Below, one piece after another: positions 1,343 through 57,482 of a DNA stretch of 64,000 bases (its first letter is position 1; each line of letters begins with the position of its first letter). The stretch comes from a virus (lineage: Duplodnaviria > Caudoviricetes): IMG/VR virus record IMGVR_UViG_2521172628_000001, positions 1 to 64,000 of that record; one strand, 5' to 3'. Under the pieces are notes generated by a model. It saw nothing but the letters and a program-made list of their open reading frames with translations. It was not told the origin of the DNA and searched no databases. Made by a program: the position numbers and the translations under genes.

Positions 1343-1927
1343 TCACGCGTCGGCCACGCGCCGGGCGTTCGCCATGTCGGCATCGGTCTGCGGAGTTCCG
1401 CCACCGTTGACGAGGAGGTAGAAGGCGGCCTCGTCCGCCTCGGTGGCGCAGTCCTTCGTCTCGGCAACGAGGAGCGAGCAGTACCGCTCCATGAAGCGCT
1501 GCCCCTTGGGGGTCAAGCCGTTGTGGCGGACATACGGTCCGTCAGCGGTGTCCTCGGTTGTCGCAACGTGGTCCTCGGGGAGCCATGACGCCGGGATGGC
1601 GAACTCGCTGGCGAACCACATGACGGCGGTGGTGAGGCGCTGTTTGCCGTCGACGACCGCCCACATGCCCTGCCCGGTTTGCCACGGGTCCTCGCCCGTC
1701 CATGCCCCATTGCCTCGGTCAGCGAGGATGACGACGCCGGCGGGTAGGCCGCGCAGCCAGGTCTGGACGAGGGCGATGCGCTGATCCTCTCCCCAGACGC
1801 GACCGCGCTGGTACGGCGGGTCGAGGAGGATCTCACCGTCCTTCACGCGTCGCGCGAGCCAGAGGGCCGACTGAAACGACGGGTTCAAGCTGATGTGGTC
1901 GAACGGTTCGAGCGTCTGTCGCGTCAT
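1343..1927 (-). CDS. DUF262 (GmrS/ParB-Srx fold) domain protein
   Basis: PPYQRGRVW and VVDGKQRLTT motifs; C-terminal LVNGGGTP; AAGGAAG RBS. Confidence 0.85.
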   Translation of the reverse strand: MTRQTLEPFDHISLNPSFQSALWLARRVKDGEILLDPPYQRGRVWGEDQRIALVQTWLRGLPAGVVILADRGNGAWTGEDPWQTGQGMWAVVDGKQRLTTAVMWFASEFAIPASWLPEDHVATTEDTADGPYVRHNGLTPKGQRFMERYCSLLVAETKDCATEADEAAFYLLVNGGGTPQTDADMANARRVADA

Positions 1928-1958
1928 TTCCGCTTCCTTGCTCGTGAAGGTCGGTTTC

Positions 1959-2033
1959 TGTTTAACAAGAATCTCGCGCATGCACCCCCTTGTCAACCCA
2001 TCAATGCAGATGGATGCTAGATTCTGTTAAACA
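1959..2033. promoter_or_regulatory. Inverted-repeat operator pair in the divergent promoter region
   Basis: TGTTTAACAAGAATCT (1959-1974) and AGATTCTGTTAAACA (2019-2033) are inverted copies differing by one base. Confidence 0.65.
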
Positions 2034-2053
2034 CTTACCGAGGAGGGGGAACG

Positions 2054-2239
2054 ATGGGGCGACCCGCCACTGGGCAGACCAAGGTCATGGGCTTCCGACC
2101 ACCCAAGCCGCTACGCGACGAGTTCGAGGCGCTCGCCAAGGCCGAGGAGCGGTCACCTTCCGACGCGCTCATCGAAGCCATGCACGACTGGATCAAGAAG
2201 AAGGAACGCGAGCGCGGGGCGGACGGCAACGCCACGTAG
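2054..2239 (+). CDS. Ribbon-helix-helix (CopG/Arc-like) DNA-binding protein
   Basis: MGRPATGQTKVMGFRPPKPLRDEFEALAKAEERSPSDALIEAM; GAGGAGG RBS. Confidence 0.75.
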   Translation: MGRPATGQTKVMGFRPPKPLRDEFEALAKAEERSPSDALIEAMHDWIKKKERERGADGNAT

Positions 2240-2248
2240 GATCCCCCG

Positions 2249-2485
2249 GTGGCACACACCTTCGAAGATCTCGTGCAGCTAGAGCAGGACGCCGTCGACG
2301 CGCACCACCAGTACACGGCCCCCGGCGTCGACGACCTCGACGCGGCCCGGCAAGCCTGGGTCGATGCAGCAGCCCGATTCCAGGCCGCCGTCACGGAGTA
2401 CGCGGCAGCCAAGGGCGAGAGCCGGGTCGAGGTGGAGATGGCCGTCAAGAAGGCCGTCCGGCACCCTGAGACGGCCGACGCCTGA
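2249..2485 (+). CDS. Hypothetical protein
   Basis: TAGGAT just before GTG; high-GC codon usage. Confidence 0.65.
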   Translation: MAHTFEDLVQLEQDAVDAHHQYTAPGVDDLDAARQAWVDAAARFQAAVTEYAAAKGESRVEVEMAVKKAVRHPETADA

Positions 2486-2558
2486 CAGCAGCGCGCCCCG
2501 GCTGCATCACGGCCGGGGCGCCACCAGCGCCAGAGCGTGGGCTGATAGTCCAACCACT

Positions 2559-2858
2559 CTAAGCGCCACCACCGACAACGCCGGGGCGCGACGACAAGCG
2601 GTAGGTGTCGACGGGGAACTCCTCGTCTCCACGGAACACGGCGGCCTCGATGAAGCGGTCCAGCTCGTTCCAGTAGCGCGACCCGGCCGGGGTGTACTGG
2701 TCGGCGGTGAGCATCTCGCACTCGACCAACCACTCTTCGCCGTTCCAGCGCGTCTCCGTGATCCGCACGTCGCAGCGAGCGTGCGGCTTGAGTGGCTCCC
2801 AGCACCAGACGGTGCCCTCACGGATGGGGAGGGGAAGCGGCGGCGCGGAAGTCTCCAT
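2559..2858 (-). CDS. Hypothetical protein
   Basis: METSAPPLPLPIREGTVWCWEP...; starts directly after the 21-bp repeated leader. Confidence 0.65.
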   Translation of the reverse strand: METSAPPLPLPIREGTVWCWEPLKPHARCDVRITETRWNGEEWLVECEMLTADQYTPAGSRYWNELDRFIEAAVFRGDEEFPVDTYRLSSRPGVVGGGA

Positions 2859-3332
2859 GCCGCCAGGATCGCAGACCGTCACGCCTCGCCCGGCCACTCC
2901 GTCAACGTCTCGCCGGTGTCCTCGTCGACGAGGGTGATGCGGGCACCAGGCCTGCCGTGCTCGCCAACCCACGACTTGAACTTGGCCTCCGCCGTCGCCC
3001 TATCCGCCCACCAGCCCTGCATGCACGGCCAATCACCCGTGTCGAGCGTGAGGTGGAAGCGATCGTGCGGGTCCTCGCCGCGCGTGATCGCAAGACACTC
3101 GGGACAGTTCACCTCACCACGCCCCGGAACCTTGTGCGCACGGTGGCCACACCTGGTGACGGCCTGCACGACCTGCCCGGCTGGGGGCTTGACGATGCGG
3201 TGAGTGAGCCGATCGAAGCGGCCCCACCCGGTCGGTTCGTCGCTCGCTGGTGCGCTCATCAGGTTGCCCTCATGGTCGTACCACGTCATCGTCTGGCCAT
3301 CACTCATGCCGCCAGGATCGCAGACGCTCACG
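2856..3332 (-). repeat. Direct repeat pair (2856-2883 and 3305-3332) forming stop-leader-ATG junctions
   Basis: catgccgccaggatcgcagac-NN-tcacg in both copies (26/28 identical); degenerate copy at 983-1003. Confidence 0.85.
2879..3307 (-). CDS. Hypothetical protein with possible Zn-binding Cys/His residues
   Basis: TRCGH...CPEC; flanked by the two junction repeats. Confidence 0.65.
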   Translation of the reverse strand: MSDGQTMTWYDHEGNLMSAPASDEPTGWGRFDRLTHRIVKPPAGQVVQAVTRCGHRAHKVPGRGEVNCPECLAITRGEDPHDRFHLTLDTGDWPCMQGWWADRATAEAKFKSWVGEHGRPGARITLVDEDTGETLTEWPGEA

Positions 3333-3549
3333 TGAGCCGGATCCCGCGGGGCCGGTGCGGCTCGCGGACGATCGCGGCCTTCGCCTCCAGCTCGCCCAGC
3401 TGGTAGTGGACAGCGCCCGCCGACCGGCCGGTCTCTGCGCGGATTTCCGCGACGGTGGGGGCGTCCCCGGTGTCGACGATGTGTCGGCGGATGATGCGGA
3501 GGATGCGCTCCTGGGTGTCGGTGAGGTGCTCGACCTTGTGCTGGGCCAT
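3328..3549 (-). CDS. LexA N-terminal DNA-binding domain-only protein
   Basis: LTDTQERILRIIRRHIVDTGDAPTVAEI...GAVHYQLGELEAKAAIVREPHRPRGIRL matches the LexA wHTH; no protease domain. Confidence 0.8.
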   Translation of the reverse strand: MAQHKVEHLTDTQERILRIIRRHIVDTGDAPTVAEIRAETGRSAGAVHYQLGELEAKAAIVREPHRPRGIRLT

Positions 3550-3557
3550 GCACCGAT

Positions 3558-3573
3558 TAGAGCGCGTGTTCGA
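3558..3573. promoter_or_regulatory. SOS (LexA) box-like site between divergent genes
   Basis: TAGAGC-GCGT-GTTCGA vs actinobacterial consensus TCGAAC-N4-GTTCGA (one perfect half). Confidence 0.6.
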
Positions 3574-3594
3574 ATTTTGGTGCAAGCTGGAGAC

Positions 3595-3933
3595 GTGCCC
3601 GACCTGCCGCCCGACCTGCCCAGACTCCGCACCCTGGAGACCTGGCTCGCCATGCAGCTCGCCCAGGTACGGGACGCCATCGCGGCGGCAGAGACACGCG
3701 AAAAGGAACAGCAGCGCGGCATCGACAAGCGGCCGGCACCGCCCGACTGGTTGCTCGACCACGGCCTCAACCGAGACGGGCCGCCCGCATGCGTGCACGC
3801 CGGCGGCTGCCACATGGCCGGCAAACGCAGCCGCGGCATCGACCGGGCCGCCGCACTCCGGGCGCTCGCCGACGGAACCCCCGCATGCAGCCACTGCCGG
3901 CCAGACTCGGAGCTCGGCTACCTGGACGGGTAG
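3595..3933 (+). CDS. DUF6233-like Zn-binding protein
   Basis: LPPDLPRLRTLETW...VHAGGC...ACSHCRPDSELG. Confidence 0.75.
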   Translation: MPDLPPDLPRLRTLETWLAMQLAQVRDAIAAAETREKEQQRGIDKRPAPPDWLLDHGLNRDGPPACVHAGGCHMAGKRSRGIDRAAALRALADGTPACSHCRPDSELGYLDG

Positions 3934-4175
3934 CGGGGCGGCGGCCGTCACCGCCAGGTGTCACGCGCGTTTGCCGTGGATCGCGCCGCCCCGCAGGCCG
4001 CCCGGCTATACGCCGACTCCGTCGGGTGCCACGGTCTCCCAGCGGCAGACGAGCGAGCCAGTGCGGCCCGCCCGCCTGCGATCGCTAAAATCGACCCCCG
4101 GGTTTCACGCCGGACGGGCGGACGAGCCACCACCAGCATGGCAGAACGGGGCGGCAGAAACTCACGGCAGGCGAA

Positions 4176-4211
4176 ACCCCTCGCCGGGACGGGGGTGACT
4201 CGGCGAGGGGC
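4176..4211 (-). terminator. Hairpin downstream of HNH gene
   Basis: cccctcgccg ... cggcgagggg stem with aaa on the left (U-tract on minus strand). Confidence 0.55.
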
Positions 4212-4226
4212 AAGGCCAGTCTGGCA

Positions 4227-4865
4227 CTACTCGCCGGCCTCTTGCTGGAGAGGGATGGAACACCTGGCGCGCGAGACCGGAAAGGGCGGCAGGTACGGGG
4301 CGCCGCGCACTTCCTGAACGGTTCGCCTGGCTATCGCGGTCATCGTGGACCTCCTGAGGCCGACGCCGGCACCGTGAACCACCGCACCCGCGAGCGATCG
4401 ACGCATGGCTGCAAGGACGACCTCGGTGCCGTCTTCTCTGGTGGCCATCTCGCCGAGCATCTCCCTGAACTGGGGCACATCGTTGATTGCGGCGATCCAG
4501 TCGTTCACTTGCTCCAGCTCGGCACTGGGGCGATCGGCCCGCTTTGAGATCCAGATGGCCATCTCCCACGGGCTGAACCAGTCCGGTGATTCCTCGTGGC
4601 AGGGCGTGCACATCAGGATGATGTTGTCCACCTTGTCGGAACCGCCGAGTCCCGCGGGGATGATGTGGGCGCGTTCCAGTCGGGCGCGCTCCCAGGCCCT
4701 CCTGGCGCTGCGACCTTCCTTCCAGCGCTCGGAGTACCAGCCGCACGTGAAGCAACACGGGTCTTCGAGACCGAGGTGCGGGGCGAAGATCTTGCGACCA
4801 TCCTCATCCGGAGTGTTGGCCCAGTACTGGGCGATGGCCCACTTCGTCGGCTTGGAGTCGGTCAC
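4227..4865 (-). CDS. HNH endonuclease
   Basis: CFTCG...LERAHIIPAGLGGSDKVDNIILMCTPCHEE. Confidence 0.85.
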   Translation of the reverse strand: MTDSKPTKWAIAQYWANTPDEDGRKIFAPHLGLEDPCCFTCGWYSERWKEGRSARRAWERARLERAHIIPAGLGGSDKVDNIILMCTPCHEESPDWFSPWEMAIWISKRADRPSAELEQVNDWIAAINDVPQFREMLGEMATREDGTEVVLAAMRRSLAGAVVHGAGVGLRRSTMTAIARRTVQEVRGAPYLPPFPVSRARCSIPLQQEAGE

Positions 4866-5488
4866 TGCGCGGTCCCCTTTCGAACGACCGTGAAGCCCGC
4901 CTCGTCGTATGCCCTTAGGGCCTGAGAGATGGCACCTACGCTCGGGTTCTTGCCCTTGTTGGCACCTTCGGCGATCCGGAGGTGGGGTTGGATCTGTCGA
5001 ATGGTGAAGCCGCTGTCTCGGAGGGCGGCAGCCTGGACGGTCAGCGCTTCGGTCATGACGGGCTTGCGTCCGCCGACGCGTCCGCGCTTGCGGGCGGCTT
5101 CGAGTCCACTCTTGGTCTTCTTGACGATGTCGCGGCGCCGGTCTTCGGCGAGGGCCAGGGCGAGGTCGAGGATGAGGGACCGCTCCTTATGCTCGCCGGC
5201 CGCGATACCCTCCAGCACCTTGACGGAGACTCCGCGCTCGAAGAGGTCGTTGAGGACGATCAGCCCTTCGAGGAGGTTGCGGCCGAGGCGGTCGACTTCC
5301 TGTACACAGAGCATGTCGCCCTCGCGCAGGTACTCGATAGCCGCAGTGAGGGCCGGACGTTCTTCGGCGCTGAGTTTGCCGCTGATCTTCTCCTCGAAGA
5401 CCTTGAGGCAGATCGGGTCGAGGGCGTCGTGCTGCCGCTGAGTGTTCTGCTTGTCGGTGCTGACGCGGACGAGGCCAACTAGGGCCAT
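4862..5488 (-). CDS. Small serine recombinase (resolvase/invertase family)
   Basis: VRVSTDKQNTQRQ, EVDRLGRNL, GLEAARKRGRVGGRK. Confidence 0.93.
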   Translation of the reverse strand: MALVGLVRVSTDKQNTQRQHDALDPICLKVFEEKISGKLSAEERPALTAAIEYLREGDMLCVQEVDRLGRNLLEGLIVLNDLFERGVSVKVLEGIAAGEHKERSLILDLALALAEDRRRDIVKKTKSGLEAARKRGRVGGRKPVMTEALTVQAAALRDSGFTIRQIQPHLRIAEGANKGKNPSVGAISQALRAYDEAGFTVVRKGTAQ

Positions 5489-5499
5489 CCAGCTCCCCT

Positions 5500-5612
5500 T
5501 TCGTTCATCAAACGTGTTGGTAGGCAATCTGAACACTACCAGGTTGATGAACGAGTTTCTGAACAACTTGACTTGCTGAACGCCGAGTTGCGCAAGATCG
5601 CGTTCAGGTTCA
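5500..5612. promoter_or_regulatory. Putative res site/promoter of the resolvase
   Basis: AT-rich; TCGTTCATCAA (5501-5511) inverted to TTGATGAACGA (5544-5554); further TGAAC/GTTCA half-sites. Confidence 0.6.
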
Positions 5613-14450: not shown

Positions 14451-15101
14451 ATGAACCTCCCCATCCCCGCCGCCGGACGCGCCACCTTCCAGGGCGCCCG
14501 CCCGTTCCCGCACCTCGTCCTCGACGACCTGTGGGACCCCGACCAGCTTCGCGAGTGCGCGGCCGAGTTCCCGCCCGCCCACGACCCCCGCTGGACGACC
14601 TACCCCGACCCGAAGGAGTACGGCAAACGCGCCGGCGACTCCCGCATGTGGGGGCCGGCCACGAAGGCGTTCTTCGAGCAGGCCCGGTCCGAGGCGACCT
14701 GCCGGACGCTGGAGGAGCTGACGGGGATCGGCCCGCTCACTGCGGACGATCTCGGCGGCGGGATGCACATGACCGGCGAAGGCGGGCGGCTGGCTCTCCA
14801 TCGCGACTTCAACCGGCACCCCACGCTGCCGCTGGAGCGCCGCCTGAACCTCCTCGTGTTCCTCAACGAGGAGTGGGAGCGGGAGTGGGGCGGCGTCCTC
14901 TACCTCGGGCGCGAGCGGGAGGTGGAGGTGCTGCCGCTGTTCAACCGCACCGTCCTCTTCGCGTGCGGCCCGGAGTCGTGGCACGGGCATCCGGAGCCGA
15001 TCGTCGGCGAGCACTGGCGCAAGAGCCTCGCGATCTACATGTACGCCCCTTTGCGCGAGGAGACCGGCAACGCTCACAGCACCATCTGGGGTGGCGAATG
15101 A
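14451..15101 (+). CDS. 2OG-Fe(II) oxygenase (prolyl-hydroxylase-like subgroup)
   Basis: PFPHLVLDD, HRDFN (HxD), RRLNLLVFLN, SWHGHP, RKSLA. Confidence 0.9.
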   Translation: MNLPIPAAGRATFQGARPFPHLVLDDLWDPDQLRECAAEFPPAHDPRWTTYPDPKEYGKRAGDSRMWGPATKAFFEQARSEATCRTLEELTGIGPLTADDLGGGMHMTGEGGRLALHRDFNRHPTLPLERRLNLLVFLNEEWEREWGGVLYLGREREVEVLPLFNRTVLFACGPESWHGHPEPIVGEHWRKSLAIYMYAPLREETGNAHSTIWGGE

Positions 15102-15775
15102 GCCCGCGCACCTGGGCCGTCACCCCGTCCAACGGGCGGCCCATGCTTGACGACCTGATCGACTCCCTCAAGGAACAGGTCTATGACGTCATCGTGGTGG
15201 CCAACAACTGGCAGCGGCCGGACCCCGCGGACTGGCTCGAATCTTCGGGGCTTCCCGTGGTGGTCGCGGACGGTGGCGCCGATAGGAACATTTCCCGCTG
15301 GTGGAACATCGGCTTCGACCTGGCGGCGCAGCATGCGGGCTGGCTGGGCGACAGCGAGTGGGACGTACTCGTCGTGAACGACGACGTCGTCTGCCCGCCC
15401 GGCCTGGTGGAGACGCTCGGCGCCCGGATGCGTGAGCGAGGCGCGGCAATGGCCTACCCGGATCAGGCGGGCGGCCAGCAGGAGATCCTCCACACGGGGG
15501 CCGCGCCGGTGCCGCTCAGTCAGCGGATCACCGGGTACGCGTTCATGCTCCGCGGCGAGAGCGGGCTGCGGGCGGACGAGGACTTCATGTGGTGGGCAGG
15601 CGACGACGACCTCGGGCTGCGGGCCCAGGCTGCTGGTGGCGCGCTGCTCGTGCCCGGCATCCCAGTCGAGCATCGGGCGCCAGACGTCCAGACGAACGCG
15701 AGCCCTGTCCTGTCGGCGCAGACGGCCAGGGACATGGACACGTTCGTTGCGAAGTGGGGGGTCAGACCGTGGTGA
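15098..15775 (+). CDS. Glycosyltransferase, GT-A fold (GT2-like)
   Basis: NISRWWNIG, LVVNDDVV, ITGYAFMLRG, WWAGDDDL. Confidence 0.82.
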   Translation: MSPRTWAVTPSNGRPMLDDLIDSLKEQVYDVIVVANNWQRPDPADWLESSGLPVVVADGGADRNISRWWNIGFDLAAQHAGWLGDSEWDVLVVNDDVVCPPGLVETLGARMRERGAAMAYPDQAGGQQEILHTGAAPVPLSQRITGYAFMLRGESGLRADEDFMWWAGDDDLGLRAQAAGGALLVPGIPVEHRAPDVQTNASPVLSAQTARDMDTFVAKWGVRPW

Positions 15776-15796
15776 ACGTTGGAGAGGGGCGAGCGG

Positions 15797-16321
15797 ATGC
15801 ATCCTGAAGCGCGTGAGGGGCTGGCCCGTCAACTGGACGCGTCCTGCCTGGACCTGAGCGCCCCGTGGCGGGTGCTGGATCTGGGCGGCCGGGACATCAA
15901 CGGCAGCATCCGGGACCTGCTCCCGGCGGCGAAGTGGACGGGCCTGGACGTCGAGCCGGGACCGGGCGTGGACCTGGTGCACGATGCGACGAGGCCGTGG
16001 CCGGACGCCTTCGAGCGGTTCGACCTCGTGGTGTGCACGGAGGTGCTGGAGCATGTCGAACGCTGGGGTGCGCTGCTACGGACCGCGTCGCAGGCGCTCG
16101 AAGCTGGCGGCCCGGAGGCCCTGTTCGTGACGTGCGCATCGACCGGGCGCCCGGAGCATGGGGCGTCGGGTGGACCGCGCCCGCTGCCGGGCGAGTGGTA
16201 CGGCAACGTCTCCCCGGGCGCCCTACGGAACGCGCTGGAGGGCCTGTTCCGGTACTCGCACGTCGAGTACCGGGCCAACCCCGGGGACGCGTATGCGTGG
16301 GCTCAAGGGGTGCTGCGGTGA
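15797..16321 (+). CDS. Class I SAM-dependent methyltransferase
   Basis: VLDLGGRDING, GLDVEPGPGVD, FDLVVCTEVLEH. Confidence 0.88.
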   Translation: MHPEAREGLARQLDASCLDLSAPWRVLDLGGRDINGSIRDLLPAAKWTGLDVEPGPGVDLVHDATRPWPDAFERFDLVVCTEVLEHVERWGALLRTASQALEAGGPEALFVTCASTGRPEHGASGGPRPLPGEWYGNVSPGALRNALEGLFRYSHVEYRANPGDAYAWAQGVLR

Positions 16322-53411: not shown

Positions 53412-54050
53412 GTGGATGTCGTCGGCACCTGGACAGGCCGATCAGCATGCCTCCTCCAAGAGGCGATGCGGATGACGAACGAGGCGTTCGGCGAACGCCT
53501 CGGGATCTCTCCCCGCACTATCACCCGGTGGCATCAGGCGCCGGAGATGACCCATCGAATCGAGGTCCAGCAGATCCTCGACACGGCATACGAGCAGGCA
53601 GGTGAGGCGGTGCAGCGACGGTTCGCGCTTCTCATGAGGCCCGCCGAGCCGCGCGTGACCGCGCAGGCCCTGCGGGTAGCGATAGCCGTCGTGCTGCGCG
53701 GAAATGATGTGCTGCTGGTTTGCCGGCGCGGGGACGGCGAGCTGCGCTGGCAGTTCCCGGCCGGCATGGTCAAGCCGGGCGCCACACCGGAAACGGTCGC
53801 CGTCCAGGAGACACACGGCGAGACGGGCGTGCACTGCATCATCCGCGAGCAGCTGGGTGAACGCGTCCACCCGGTTACCGGTGTCGTCGCGGCGTACTTC
53901 CTCGCCGATCACCTGGCGGGCGAGGCGCGAAACCTCGACCCGCTGGAGAACGTCGACGTGACGTGGGTGCCGCGTTCGGCGCTGACCCGGTTCATTCCGC
54001 AAGACCAGATCTTCCCGCCGATCCTGAGCGCCTTGGAGGCCATCGCATGA
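53412..54050 (+). CDS. XRE-like HTH fused to a degenerate Nudix domain
   Basis: MTNEAFGERLGISPRTITRW; WQFPAGMVKPGATPETVAVQETHGETG. Confidence 0.85.
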   Translation: MDVVGTWTGRSACLLQEAMRMTNEAFGERLGISPRTITRWHQAPEMTHRIEVQQILDTAYEQAGEAVQRRFALLMRPAEPRVTAQALRVAIAVVLRGNDVLLVCRRGDGELRWQFPAGMVKPGATPETVAVQETHGETGVHCIIREQLGERVHPVTGVVAAYFLADHLAGEARNLDPLENVDVTWVPRSALTRFIPQDQIFPPILSALEAIA

Positions 54051-54460
54051 CGACCGAGACGACCACCGAGAAGCCGGGCATCTCCGCCGCGATCATCGTC
54101 AGCTCTGGGCGCGTCCTGATGGTGCGGCGCCGCGTCTCCGAGGGCGAGCTGATGTGGCAGTTCCCGGCCGGCGCTATCGAGGCCGGCGAGTCCGCGGAAG
54201 AAGCTGCCACCCGGGAGACGGAGGAGGAGACCGGCCTGACCGTGAAGGCGATCCGCCTCCTCGGGGAGCGGGTCCACCCGAAGACACAGCGGCTGATGTC
54301 GTACACGGCCTGCGAGCCCGTCTCCGGCGAAGCGCACGTGGCCGACGATGACGAGCTCGACGCGGTCGCCTGGGTGAGCCTCGACGAGATCCCCGAATAC
54401 GTGCCCTACGGCCTGTTCGGCCCGGTGCAGGAGTACCTGGATGAGGTGCTGGCGGGCTGA
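54047..54460 (+). CDS. Nudix hydrolase (MutT-like)
   Basis: Canonical Nudix box GAIEAGESAEEAATRETEEETGL. Confidence 0.92.
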   Translation: MTTETTTEKPGISAAIIVSSGRVLMVRRRVSEGELMWQFPAGAIEAGESAEEAATRETEEETGLTVKAIRLLGERVHPKTQRLMSYTACEPVSGEAHVADDDELDAVAWVSLDEIPEYVPYGLFGPVQEYLDEVLAG

Positions 54461-54737
54461 GTTCCGGCCACTCTCAACGCGCGGTCGATATGTCCGCGGC
54501 GAGGGGAGGGAGGCGCGACAGATCCTATCGGATCAGGCAAACCCGCAATCAGCCCAGCTAGACGCCCAGATCGGCAACGGTCTGGATCTGAAGCCGGCCG
54601 TGTAGGCGGAGGCCGAAAGTGGCCTAGCGTCAGCGGCGGAAAAGCGAGCGGCCCGGTGCGCGAACACCGGGCCGTTTCGACCAGCGAGCGTCAACTCGCT
54701 GATCATCAACCACTCCCCGCAAGAGAAGAGGTTCCCT

Positions 54738-55049
54738 GTGAGCTTACTGGCTGACACCCCCACCGCGCCTGCGGCTTGCGTCACGCCCGACCTGACCGCC
54801 GAATGGCTGATGGCCGCTCCGCTTGAGGTGCTGCTCGTCGACCTGGGCGTCGAGCTGTTCGACTCGAAGATCACGGACCGGACGTTCTTCGGCGCGGTCG
54901 TGCAGTACGCGGACGGCCGGCTCTCCCTGTCGATGCCTGTCGGGCGCAGCGAGTTCGAGCACGACACGGTGGCCCGCTACCTGCTCGCGCAGGCTTTCGG
55001 CGTTGGCCTGCCGCCCCTGCCGGAGCCGTTCGAGACGACGGAGTTCTAG
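54738..55049 (+). CDS. Hypothetical protein
   Basis: FFGAVV...LSMPVGRS..EHDTVARYLL; preceded by several hairpins. Confidence 0.65.
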   Translation: MSLLADTPTAPAACVTPDLTAEWLMAAPLEVLLVDLGVELFDSKITDRTFFGAVVQYADGRLSLSMPVGRSEFEHDTVARYLLAQAFGVGLPPLPEPFETTEF

Positions 55050-55244
55050 CCGCCAACACCTGGGCGGAATAGGCCATTCGGCCACAGAATTCACATAGAA
55101 TTGCAGGAAAACGGCGACGGCCGGACGGGGCTCAATCCGTCCGGCCGTTTCGCGTAGAGCGGGTCATCACCCCGCTGCCATCACCTGCCGTCCGACCCTC
55201 GCCAGAAAGTCGAGCAACACCATGACGATACCGATGACGCCGCA

Positions 55245-55622
55245 ATGTCGCCACCAGGCGGTGGCGAGTTGAGGATCTTCCGATCCAAGCCGAAGAGCGG
55301 CTGGACGCCCACCAGCAACGAGCACGTCGCCCGGAACTACGTCCTGAGCCTGAAGGCGAAGGGCCTGCTGGTCACCTTCCTGTCGCAGCCGGACGGCGGC
55401 GGAATGACGGTCGAACGGCTCGCCTATCTCCACAAGGCTGCTGGCGGCAAGGGTGAGGGCGAGCACGCGATCCGCGAGGCCCTGAAGGAGCTGCGATCCG
55501 CCGGCTTGGTGACGCACGTGAAGGAGAAGGGCAAGGGCGGTCGGTGGCAGACGACGACCCTCGTGAGCGACACACCGGAGGGCCTGTTGCGCCTCCTCAA
55601 AGAGGTCTCACCGGACCCCTGA
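55245..55622 (+). CDS. Winged-helix protein resembling the N-terminus of phage replication initiators; start uncertain
   Basis: LSLKAKGLLVTFLSQPDG...GEHAIREALKELRSAGLV. Confidence 0.7.
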   Translation: MSPPGGGELRIFRSKPKSGWTPTSNEHVARNYVLSLKAKGLLVTFLSQPDGGGMTVERLAYLHKAAGGKGEGEHAIREALKELRSAGLVTHVKEKGKGGRWQTTTLVSDTPEGLLRLLKEVSPDP

Positions 55623-55820
55623 TTTTCCGGGGTCCGGAGGCTCCGGATGCCGGACTGTCCGGAGTCCCGTGGCTGGGGGGTCAACTACCTAAGACGTCTA
55701 CAGGAAGAAGGCTGGACTGGAATATCCGCTCCTCGAAGAGGAGAAGCCTGCCTCTCTTCCCGCCGCTGTTCGCGCAGGCGCGCGCGACCTGGCCTGGGGT
55801 CGCCGTGTACGGTGCCCGCC

Positions 55821-55985
55821 ATGAGCACTCCGCCCACCCCGGCCCCGACCGCCCCGCGTACCCCGTTGCCCCGTCTGGCGGCTCGCTCGTCGGCGGGTTC
55901 GCCGCTGCTGGCCCGGGTCGTGCGCCGGGGGCCGGAGGAGGGTCCGAGGCCGGTGGCGGTGGCCGCGTTCCAGTCGGCCGTGTGA
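55821..55985 (+). CDS. FxSxx-COOH-type peptide (54 aa)
   Basis: RTPLPRL...LARVV...VAVAAFQSAV-stop; TACGGT 7 nt before ATG. Confidence 0.72.
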   Translation: MSTPPTPAPTAPRTPLPRLAARSSAGSPLLARVVRRGPEEGPRPVAVAAFQSAV

Positions 55986-55993
55986 ACGCAGCA

Positions 55994-56028
55994 GAAGGCC
56001 CCGCGCCCGGGATGGGTGCGGGGCCTTC
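55994..56028. terminator. Hairpin terminator between convergent genes
   Basis: gaaggccccgcgccc-gggat-gggtgcggggccttc. Confidence 0.7.
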
Positions 56029-56043
56029 GTCGTGCGCCGGTGC

Positions 56044-56403
56044 TCACTTCTCGCCCGCCCGGTCGATGTCCCAGTTGCGGTCGTTGGCGGCCAGTTCGGC
56101 GACACTGGGGTGGTCGGCGTGTGCCGCGTTGATCTGGTCGCGGATGGCTTCGTATCCGGTGAGCCGGTCGCGCCAGTTGGTGGGCTCGGGTCCGGATTTG
56201 CCGAAGTGGGCGCGGAGTTCGGCAACCAGGACGTCGTCGCCGGGGTTGTCGTGGTCGTGGCCGAGGGCTTCGCAGAGGATGTCGCGGAAGCGGTCGGCGG
56301 CTCCGGCTGCGGTGCGTCGGGCGGCATGCTGGTCTTCGAGCTCGGCGTGCAACTGGTCGAGGTCGTCGCTGGTCATCTGGTCGAGGGTTTTGCGGTCGGT
56401 CAC
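56044..56403 (-). CDS. Hypothetical protein
   Basis: TLDQMTSDDLDQLHAEL; PSVAELAANDRNW. Confidence 0.65.
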   Translation of the reverse strand: MTDRKTLDQMTSDDLDQLHAELEDQHAARRTAAGAADRFRDILCEALGHDHDNPGDDVLVAELRAHFGKSGPEPTNWRDRLTGYEAIRDQINAAHADHPSVAELAANDRNWDIDRAGEK

Positions 56404-56549
56404 AGGTAGTCCTCGCTCGGCTTGATCGTTGTCACGTCGCGCACGACCAGCGTTTCCCCGCACATTTCCTGCCGGCCTTGCTCGCAGAGTCGGTCGAGGG
56501 CGGCCGGGTTGGTGCGCCAGTTCGGCTCGGCGTCGGGTGGGGCAGTCAC
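56400..56549 (-). CDS. Small hypothetical protein
   Basis: GTGA-coupled on both sides. Confidence 0.5.
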   Translation of the reverse strand: MTAPPDAEPNWRTNPAALDRLCEQGRQEMCGETLVVRDVTTIKPSEDYL

Positions 56550-56866
56550 GGCTGGCTCCGGTTGATTTCGCGGGCGATCGCGAGGGCCGCAGCAGCGTCT
56601 TCGGGCATGGGGGCGTCTTCGCGGAGTTCGATGGGCGTCCAGCTGCGGAGCCATTTCGCGAGGTGGCGGGCGGTGGTGGGGTTGAGGAGTCCGGCGAGTT
56701 GTCCGGCCGGGGTGCCGACGGCGTTTTCGATTCCGTGGCCGAACCAGTGGTGCTTCGGAGCGATTCGGGAGTGCCAGTACGGGTTGGTGTTGATGTCGCG
56801 GTCGGCGTCGTCGGCGAGGTCGAGGAGGGTTTGCGCGGCGGTGGCAAGTTCCTGGGCGGGGGTCAT
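56546..56866 (-). CDS. Hypothetical protein
   Basis: MTPAQELATAA...LAKWL...ALAIAREIN; AAGGAG RBS. Confidence 0.7.
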   Translation of the reverse strand: MTPAQELATAAQTLLDLADDADRDINTNPYWHSRIAPKHHWFGHGIENAVGTPAGQLAGLLNPTTARHLAKWLRSWTPIELREDAPMPEDAAAALAIAREINRSQP

Positions 56867-56921
56867 GGTGCTCCTTCGGGTCGGCGGTGGGCCGGGCCGG
56901 TGAAGGCCCGGCAGGCGGGGG

Positions 56922-57482
56922 TCAGGTGCGGGGGAAGTCGCGGGCTTTGAGCTTGGCCATGCGTCCGTCGAGGTGGTGCCAGACGAGGCCCTCGTAGGGG
57001 CGGCTCGCGAACCAGGCGCGGAGGCCGTCGTAGTCGCGCGGTGCGGCTTCGCAGTCGATGCGTTCGGACAGTGGCGCCCAGCCGTGGGGCATGAGGAGGT
57101 GCTCGTCGAACTGGTCCGGGTTGCCGTTGATCTTCGGGCCGAGGAGTTCGTAGGTTCCGGGCACCCGCGCGGCGCTGTTGGCGAGTGCCTCGGCGTGGAT
57201 CTTCGCGAACGACGACTGCGCCATCGGCTCCCAGCCGAAGAGCTTCCCCGTCGTCTCGTCGTGGGCAACGACCTTGTAGCCGGGCGGGAGCTCCTTGCGG
57301 GGCTTGACCTCGCGGCGAGCCCACCAATGGCCGTTGTCGTCGAGCATCGTGCAGGTGCCGTCCCACTTGCGGGTGGGTCGGCCTTCTCCGGCGAGGACCC
57401 ATTCGCAGCCGGGGGTGACGTCGGGGAGGACGTGGGCTCGGTCTTCGGGGTTGCGGATGAAGAGGGTTGGGATCTTGTTCAT
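56922..57482 (-). CDS. RNA ligase-like nucleotidyltransferase (DUF5565/RLIG1-like)
   Basis: KIPTLF, TRKWDGTC (KxDG), TYELLGPKINGNP, EGLVW, AKLK. Confidence 0.78.
   Translation of the reverse strand: MNKIPTLFIRNPEDRAHVLPDVTPGCEWVLAGEGRPTRKWDGTCTMLDDNGHWWARREVKPRKELPPGYKVVAHDETTGKLFGWEPMAQSSFAKIHAEALANSAARVPGTYELLGPKINGNPDQFDEHLLMPHGWAPLSERIDCEAAPRDYDGLRAWFASRPYEGLVWHHLDGRMAKLKARDFPRT

Follow-up and report, generated by a model that had tools for sequence, protein, structure and literature searches.

An orphan FxsA-like precursor gene in a Streptomyces prophage as a possible look-alike of a host peptide

What does a temperate phage do with the gene of a precursor peptide when the genes that mature such peptides are absent from its record? 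The question is raised by P0001, an open reading frame (ORF) of 54 amino acids (aa) at positions 55821–55985 (+) of the window, i.e., the whole 64,000-nt stretch of DNA that was analysed, which is the first 64 kb of the 80,260-nt IMG/VR provirus record IMGVR_UViG_2521172628_000001 (CheckV completeness estimate 81%). The peptide resembles the FxSxx-COOH (FxsA) precursors, which are matured by FxsB, a radical SAM/SPASM enzyme that installs a cyclophane cross-link on their core, and the initial annotation had proposed that it may mimic the precursor of the host so as to jam or exploit the host system. For the Fxs peptide, the text of PMC7159879 predicts the role of a toxin, or of a signal amplifying an NTPase/TIR conflict system, whereas that of a preprint (bioRxiv 10.64898/2026.10.19.760177) envisages a molecule active against viruses or an alarm that diffuses to neighbouring cells, interprets FxsC as a TIR that degrades NAD+, and states that the Fxs system is functionally uncharacterised. 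The analysis presented below leads to the view that P0001 is, with little doubt, a true FxsA homologue and that the phage carries it as orphan cargo. That it is a functional, phage-carried look-alike of the host FxsA precursor, tampering with the host Fxs system, is given a probability of about one half.

The 54-aa ORF ending in VAVAAFQSAV, on which the initial annotation was built, is borne out. It runs from ATG 55821 to TGA 55983–55985 and its translation, MSTPPTPAPTAPRTPLPRLAARSSAGSPLLARVVRRGPEEGPRPVAVAAFQSAV, begins with MSTPP and ends with PVAVAAFQSAV, so that the motif F-x-S-x-x occupies the final five residues directly before the stop (FQSAV-TGA). The G+C content at codon positions 1/2/3 is 0.75/0.75/0.87, and since the value at the third position (GC3) is 0.62 in the in-frame stretch upstream (55647–55820), ATG 55821 (or GTG 55812) is the likely start; a 112-aa frame from ATG 55647, present in the ORF list, was rejected as a gene because of the same upstream GC3. 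NCBI and UniRef contain the identical 54-aa protein, encoded on one 589,358-nt contig, and a word-indexed protein search with P0001 matched itself alone.

The membership of P0001 in the FxsA family was assessed with the NCBIfam equivalog model TIGR04268, which has a curated cut-off of 28 bits. The protein matches profile positions 5–44 of 44, to its exact C-terminus, with E 1.1e-5 and 25.6 bits, and in a six-frame search of the record it was the only match among nine scored candidates (E 5.1e-6, 23.7 bits). The family match anticipated by the initial annotation is thus present, though below the cut-off. The canonical, FxsB-adjacent precursor of S. canus itself reaches only 29.3–30.5 bits; therefore this subfamily lies at the margin of the model, where a diverged member would be expected to give 25.6 bits. 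Pfam and PHROGs gave no family for P0001, and an exhaustive HMMER scan of 1.84 billion representatives returned four proteins at E<=0.001, namely P0001 itself, one unrelated repeat protein, P0003 (83 aa, with the final 11 residues as in P0001), and P0004 (58 aa, from JGI, named FXSXX-COOH protein by its source, 26.4 bits with TIGR04268). A tblastn search of 50,697 GenBank phage records found no match for P0001 or for two other phage-borne peptides, short low-complexity queries of this kind being weak in such a search. More relatives were obtained with a degenerate DNA pattern for the C-terminus, V-A-[AG]-F-Q-S-A-x-stop, which picked out 55 stretches in species-representative genomes. The subfamily closest to P0001 consists of 13 Streptomyces loci (...ERVPLVRLAAR...SGALTRVV...RGPARVSVAAFQSAV), and in 13/13 of them an FxsB homologue, 77–100% identical to that of the canonical S. 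canus locus, starts at, or within ~100 nt of, the peptide stop; three further metagenome loci of the subfamily have FxsB directly after the precursor (3/3). With 16 FxsB-adjacent precursors P0001 shares 55–61% identity over 43–44 residues, interrupted by one-residue gaps only, which backs the family match. It also shares with them the leader blocks RxPLxRLAAR and SxxLxRVV, retained in P0001 as R-x-P-L-x-R-L-A-A-R and S-P-L-L-x-R-V-V ahead of the core FQSAV-COOH. At the DNA level, similarity to known relatives is confined to ~80 nt at 74%. Judged from its sequence, P0001 is a divergent homologue of FxsA, one that scores below the curated cut-off and stands apart from any FxsB gene.

This separation from FxsB holds for the whole record. 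No match to FxsB (TIGR04269), Radical_SAM (PF04055), or the HExxH model TIGR04267 was found in its 80,260 nt; tblastn of S. canus FxsB against the record gave no homologue (best E 0.09), and S. canus FxsC and ParA-like ATPase (FxsT-like) gave a best E of 0.38 or none. The absence of a radical SAM gene, first remarked upon for the window, therefore extends to the entire 80-kb record (PF04055, TIGR04269), and a cognate fxsB elsewhere in the element, which would have spoken against the proposal, was detected neither by TIGR04269 and PF04055 nor by tblastn; for proteases and transporters no dedicated search of the record was made. The combination by which an fxs/TIR-ParA cluster is recognised, FxsC with a ParA-like/KGGVGR NTPase nearby, is likewise absent at P0001. 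At the canonical S. canus locus (L002) the order is precursor, a fusion of FxsB with an aKG-HExxH beta-hydroxylase domain (586.7 and 190.5 bits), FxsC with a TIR-like N-terminus (220.8 bits) and a C-terminal domain (191.9 bits), and a KGGVGR ParA-like ATPase, which is the architecture described in the text of PMC7159879 and of bioRxiv 10.64898/2026.10.19.760177. PADLOC, run on FxsB and the ParA-like ATPase, reported generic viperin and PDC matches only.

How unusual an isolated precursor is can be judged from chromosomes. The Fxs module is widespread: among 201 Streptomyces species genomes, FxsB exceeded its cut-off in 131 and TIGR04268 in 86. In these genomes 110 of the 111 over-cut-off chromosomal precursors lie within 10 kb of FxsB. 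For 72 of the 111, FxsB was found at <=10 kb among the matches listed; stretches of up to 18 kb (less at contig ends) were taken around the other 39, and 38 of these hold an FxsB homologue within 760 nt of the precursor. The single exception sits on a 3.8-kb contig and matches TIGR04268 at profile positions 1–29 only. The count set 111 over-cut-off and 21 sub-threshold precursors against 150 FxsB among the matches listed (74 more lie beyond them), with <=33 TIGR04268 candidates scored per genome, and the linkage figure covers the over-cut-off precursors.

Searched with the same C-terminal DNA pattern, IMG/VR yielded eight viral records, and all eight (8/8) carry an FxSxx-ending ORF of ~55 aa; two of these ORFs are identical, which leaves seven distinct sequences. 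Each of the eight peptides matches TIGR04268 at E<=0.01 and five are over the cut-off. FxsB occurs in 0/8 of these records and any radical SAM domain in 0/5 tested; these phage-borne copies, of the kind that the initial annotation had suggested counting in prophages, are orphans throughout. Four of the peptide ORFs are preceded by Shine-Dalgarno-like sites. The surroundings of the gene are phage-like: in G209 the tape-measure and major-head genes flank it and it is on the opposite strand, in G207 an integrase and an exonuclease are near it, and in two large phages, G208 (147,889 nt, 100% complete) and G211 (158,018 nt, 97%), it stands within a tRNA array, on the same strand. A tyrosine integrase was found in 0/5 phage records tested, G208 and G211 included, serine integrases not having been searched for. 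The arrays themselves (L078, G208:C1:35000-51000; L075, G211:C1:49000-65000) contain 32–33 tRNA genes within 16 kb; both include a tRNA with the anticodon CTA, which reads TAG (labelled Pyl by ARAGORN), and that of G208 also one with the four-base anticodon ctaa. Two metagenome contigs, L070 and L071, probably carry orphan peptides as well, as far as the stretches around the gene go. The first shares two genes with the window phage (62% and 40% identity) and has its peptide gene, preceded by a GGAGG site, in a comparable island on the opposite strand; the peptide of the second scores 31.0 bits with TIGR04268. A tblastx comparison of the viral loci with the record returned high-G+C noise only and was discarded.

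A lysogen with two copies links the phage-borne and the chromosomal precursors. Profile A4, made from P0001 and five relatives and run on 401 Streptomyces genomes, gave 11 matches in 10 of them: nine beside FxsB, one without an FxSxx ORF, and one orphan, at G255:C557:22591-22734 of Streptomyces genome G255 (37.8 bits with TIGR04268). A second sample of 401 Streptomycetaceae genomes added 20 new loci, 18 beside FxsB and two spurious low-complexity ones, and no further orphan. The G255 contig C557 (24 kb) is prophage-like, with genes for an exonuclease, RusA, WhiB, a DnaC-like loader, an RNA ligase, a PAPS reductase, and an excisionase-type helix-turn-helix (HTH) protein; three of its genes are homologous to the early region of the window phage (68%, 46%, and 30% identity), and the orphan is convergent with the end of the early operon, as P0001 is in the window. 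Another contig of G255 encodes FxsB-HExxH (602.9 bits) with a precursor of its own (36.9 bits) ahead of it. BLASTP puts the identity between the prophage and host precursors at 60%; over the final 46 residues it is 71%, and the final 11, RVAVAAFQSSV, are the same, the FQSSV variant being typical of that host clade. The G255 orphan resembles canonical precursors more than it does the other orphans (50–57%), which argues for separate captures or for host tracking rather than for a single phage gene lineage. Both the host-matched core in this lysogen and the contrast between FxsB linkage in 110/111 chromosomal precursors and in none of the eight viral records or the window record suggest a recurrent phage strategy, not an accident.

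The prophage setting assumed by the initial annotation is confirmed by structural genes on one side of P0001 and replication and recombination genes on the other. The minus-strand late genes encode a minor tail protein, the tape measure (1532 aa), major head, scaffold, portal, large terminase, and an FtsK-like protein. To the right of P0001, the minus-strand early genes include an RNA ligase (phrog_14301, 6.7e-46) ~1 kb away, DnaB, a DnaC-like loader, RecT, YqaJ, and a beta clamp, besides a P22 AR_N antirepressor domain and an HTH regulator. P0001 lies deep inside a genuine siphovirus-like temperate Streptomyces prophage; the possibility that its region is host flank was rejected, since phage genes extend for >20 kb on both sides. 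The beta clamp is the prophage's own DNA polymerase III clamp (L061 8652–10022, i.e., record 70652–72022), has all three Pfam domains, and adjoins RecT/YqaJ and the DnaB/DnaC-like pair. Two other regions of the window deserve mention. The left end of the record, which also holds an amidase gene, encodes at 1343–5566 a GmrSD_N-domain protein, a LexA-type DNA binder, an HNH protein, and a resolvase-domain recombinase, and it may be the end that serves integration and immunity, or else a defence island of its own. At 14451–16321 (+), where the lysis module and the tail module meet, a 2OG-Fe(II) oxygenase (PF13640) and a SAM methyltransferase form a pair that is possibly cargo modifying peptides or nucleic acids.

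Within the prophage, P0001 is the last gene of a plus-strand island (53412–55985) between the minus-strand late and early genes. The part upstream of it (53412–55622), delimited by Pfam and PHROG matches and strand layout, contains genes for an HTH-NUDIX protein (53412–54050), a NUDIX protein (54047–54460), a hypothetical protein (54738–55049), and a winged-helix, replication-initiator-like DNA binder (55245–55622), all on the plus strand. The two adjacent NUDIX genes, the first fused to an Xre-type HTH, both match the PADLOC candidate PDC-S07. A nucleotide-hydrolysing NUDIX protein is conceivable as a partner to the peptide, given the reading of FxsC as an NAD+-degrading TIR in the preprint; the presence of NUDIX genes without a peptide gene in the related phage L057 counts against such a partnership. 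The winged-helix protein is 66–93% identical in four related IMG/VR phages (L057–L060), which also share the ~170 nt of non-coding DNA after it. This conserved non-coding element (55622–55787, +; alignment A2, blastn end points, RNAalifold) opens with a long hairpin directly after the winged-helix gene (arms 55609–55671, inverted repeat I1), and RNAalifold predicts 46 pairs in it, 9 with compensatory changes. Homology by blastn to all four relatives ends at 55775–55787, 34–46 nt before the P0001 ATG, and the plus-strand genes that follow differ among the relatives. The stretch 55788–56900 is thus delimited, by blastn and the relatives' ORFs, as the variable cargo slot of the phage group: compared with L057–L060 it shows no blastn homology except one 43-nt match to L059 at 56545–56587, homology to the relatives resumes in the RNA-ligase region at 56932, and besides P0001 the slot holds on the minus strand a NuM1-like gene (56047–56376, match to Streptomyces phage ZL12) and a 106-aa ORF (56549–56866, from the ORF list). 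From the homology break, the different genes in the relatives, and the lack of homologues in the four, it follows that P0001 is accessory, a piece of cargo whose variable slot comes after a conserved element that possibly bears a promoter. That element (55609–55787; about 6370–6545 in L057–L060) is kept in five phages, each with its own plus-strand cargo right after it; L057 and L059 encode a zinc-ribbon membrane protein there, L058 a J-domain-like protein. The element may combine a terminator with a promoter for the cargo, or may be an origin to which the replication-initiator-like protein encoded next to it binds.

The expression signals that the initial annotation had assigned to the peptide gene fared unequally. 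The leaderless-type promoter was not confirmed: a scan for consensus sigma-70 promoters gave 0 sites in 55000–56600, and direct reading offers only TACGGT (55809–55814, +), a -10-like TANNNT hexamer, as a putative leaderless promoter. It sits six bases before the ATG, with no Shine-Dalgarno sequence upstream of that codon by direct reading, so a leaderless start is geometrically possible and unproven. The terminator proposal holds in part. A 15-bp G+C-rich, terminator-like hairpin (55994–56028, inverted repeat I2) follows P0001 and is stable (-41.7 kcal/mol, z -4.5, 0/200 shuffles as good), but it has no T-tract and was for this reason missed by the consensus terminator scan. It lies between convergent genes, P0001 (+) and a minus-strand gene ending at 56044. 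An Rfam search near the P0001 locus gave nothing (best E 0.42), and a tRNA search of the window found none. Taken as a whole, the observation behind the initial annotation retains its ORF, a terminator-like hairpin, and its lack of a radical SAM gene, the promoter being unconfirmed.

It is proposed that P0001 works as a look-alike of the host precursor. Since maturation and effector genes are missing from the phage, the peptide would act only through host machinery; the host FxsB-HExxH maturase would recognise it as a substrate or as a competitor of the resident precursor. That P0001 needs and engages host FxsB is judged more likely than not, and the retained leader and core suggest a competent substrate rather than a dead decoy. 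By this route the phage could disturb the FxsC/FxsT (TIR-ParA) suicide or alarm system at its peptide arm. The system might be dampened or pre-empted to the benefit of the phage, either by competition for FxsB or by a supply of peptide that keeps the system quiet, much as some phages bring a host antitoxin in a copy of their own. Counter-defence as the net effect is put forward tentatively; it is favoured because copies are also present in large phages for which the search detected no tyrosine integrase, and this argues for a role in lytic infection. The most general form of the proposal says that host-matched FxsA genes have been taken up time and again by actinophages, the temperate and probably the virulent ones as well, for counter-defence or signal hijack, that host FxsB-HExxH processes the peptide, that the diffusible-peptide arm of the TIR-ParA suicide immunity of multicellular actinomycetes is silenced, desensitised, or usurped, and that the phage cores track those of the hosts; in this entirety it is rather unlikely. 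The gene is phage-encoded and its product is similar to a component of a predicted host immune locus, as expected of a phage mimic, and the mimicry claimed by the initial annotation gains circumstantial support from the unequal FxsB linkage and the core shared in G255, set against a sub-cut-off score.

Several observations weigh against this proposal. The TIGR04268 score is below 28 bits, P0001 is a singleton cluster at 90% identity, and neither a consensus promoter nor a Shine-Dalgarno sequence precedes it. No FxsA-like ORF occurs in the four whole related phage records (0/4, two of them 100% complete), and this absence, with the singleton state, implies that the gene is dispensable. Because it was the C-terminal motif that served to find the viral copies, an intact core in them is in part a matter of ascertainment; only one orphan turned up in two samples of 401 genomes each, and the two contigs of G255 are linked only by one draft assembly. 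As to the host of the window phage, the presence of fxsB is given only by the prior of 131/201 Streptomyces genomes. The immune role of Fxs is a prediction only, PADLOC has no Fxs model, and if the mature peptide is an alarm or a toxin, then the signal would be strengthened rather than weakened by a phage copy that can be fully processed.

Other explanations have to be set beside it, beginning with those that deny P0001 a role. It could be no gene at all but a chance frame in 69% G+C DNA whose Pro/Ala/Arg-rich translation resembles the profile, as the low score, a GC2 of 0.75, unusual for coding DNA, and the missing ribosome-binding site would allow. This is hardly credible in view of a position-specific match that extends to the exact C-terminus, of independent homologues (P0003, P0004) and 16 canonical precursors that align without large gaps, and of the fact that no other of the nine candidates scored in the record matched the model. 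A neutral passenger, i.e., an fxs fragment brought in by illegitimate recombination, undecayed and without a role for phage or host, would agree with the absence of P0001 from the four closest relatives, its singleton state, its position exactly at a homology breakpoint, the lack of Shine-Dalgarno and consensus promoter signals, and orphans that do not form one clade, the G255 copy being nearest to canonical precursors. P0001, however, is full length, with start, leader, and core intact, and only 55–64% identical to every known relative; together with the limited DNA similarity this means that it is no recent capture from any sampled genome. Neither is there an FxsB fragment beside it, at least seven different intact copies of ~55 aa exist in other phage records, each without FxsB, and the diverged large phages G208 and G211 both retain the gene in their tRNA arrays. 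The passenger explanation is accordingly held to be quite improbable.

Two further explanations grant the peptide a function of another kind. It could act unmodified and independently of FxsB, binding a TPR, ParA, or TIR sensor or another host protein, or serving as a phage–phage signal. The maturase is absent from the phage records searched, and Fxs-linked NTPases with peptide-binding TPRs are described in the text of PMC7159879. Against this stand the leader blocks and the core, which define FxsB substrates, are both kept, and are hard to explain unless the maturase is engaged; in addition, the phage records examined do not share any receptor-like partner gene next to the peptide, and the idea is regarded as a slim one. 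The other explanation is lysogenic conversion by a moron, in which an extra processable precursor leads, via host FxsB, to more or constitutive peptide and primes the lysogen and its mycelial kin, resulting in superinfection exclusion. It draws on the opposite-strand island with HTH regulators between lytic modules, typical of prophage-expressed morons, on the small membrane proteins and other cargo that relatives hold in the same slot, on the identity of the G255 core with that of its host, by which the product would be the authentic peptide, and on the texts of PMC7159879 and bioRxiv 10.64898/2026.10.19.760177, which model the peptide as antiviral or as an alarm. Conversion is unlikely, though, in the two 148–158-kb phages (97–100% complete) that carry the gene in tRNA arrays and show no tyrosine integrase, the serine type not having been searched for, and the G209 copy between tape-measure and head genes also counts against it; as a general account it is considered unlikely. 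The look-alike that tampers with the host Fxs system remains the favoured interpretation.

If the general proposal on actinophages is true, this would be the first mimic of a precursor of a ribosomally synthesised and post-translationally modified peptide (RiPP) in phage–host conflict and would provide the first functional handle on Fxs. A phage gene that supplies the peptide and nothing else is a natural genetic probe of whether Fxs is antiviral and of whether its peptide is a toxin, an alarm, or an off-switch. A literature search found no paper on phage-borne FxsA genes; the words "decoy" and "mimic" have 0 occurrences in bioRxiv 10.64898/2026.10.19.760177, and phage-borne copies, decoys, or mimics go unmentioned in the text of that preprint and of PMC7159879, whose supplementary tables might list some. 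What the window adds is a Streptomyces prophage member of a divergent FxsA subfamily, the anatomy of its slot, the 110/111 chromosomal baseline, and the host-matched pair in G255.

Among known systems, the FxsA precursors themselves (TIGR04268; SjiA, NF040585; matured by FxsB, TIGR04269) are the nearest. P0001 is like them in its size of ~55 aa, its leader blocks, and its F-x-S-x-x carboxy terminus, and unlike them in its sub-cut-off score and in the absence of FxsB, HExxH, FxsC, or a ParA-like ATPase from the 80-kb element; it is borne by a prophage, whereas chromosomal copies nearly always neighbour FxsB. To the TIR-ParA (FxsC/FxsT) conflict systems with an FxsAB module it is related through their peptide (toxin, signal, or alarm) family, but here the peptide alone is present and no other component. 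Phages are known to carry copies of a host immune component that silence the host system, such as the pseudo-ToxI of phage PhiTE, directed against ToxIN, and Dmd of T4. With these P0001 has in common that it is a look-alike of a small, labile or regulatory part of a suicide system, carried without the effector; the difference is that pseudo-ToxI and Dmd are RNA or protein antitoxin mimics with demonstrated activity, while P0001 is a RiPP precursor that would first need host modification and is known from sequence. The central variable regions of temperate actinophages, in turn, hold prophage-expressed defence genes (morons). Like prophage morons, P0001 is a small gene that stands alone, is followed by a terminator-like hairpin of its own, runs against the lytic strand and lies in a variable slot; it differs from those of actinophages in its cargo, which is a precursor peptide that would depend on a host enzyme and not a defence protein.

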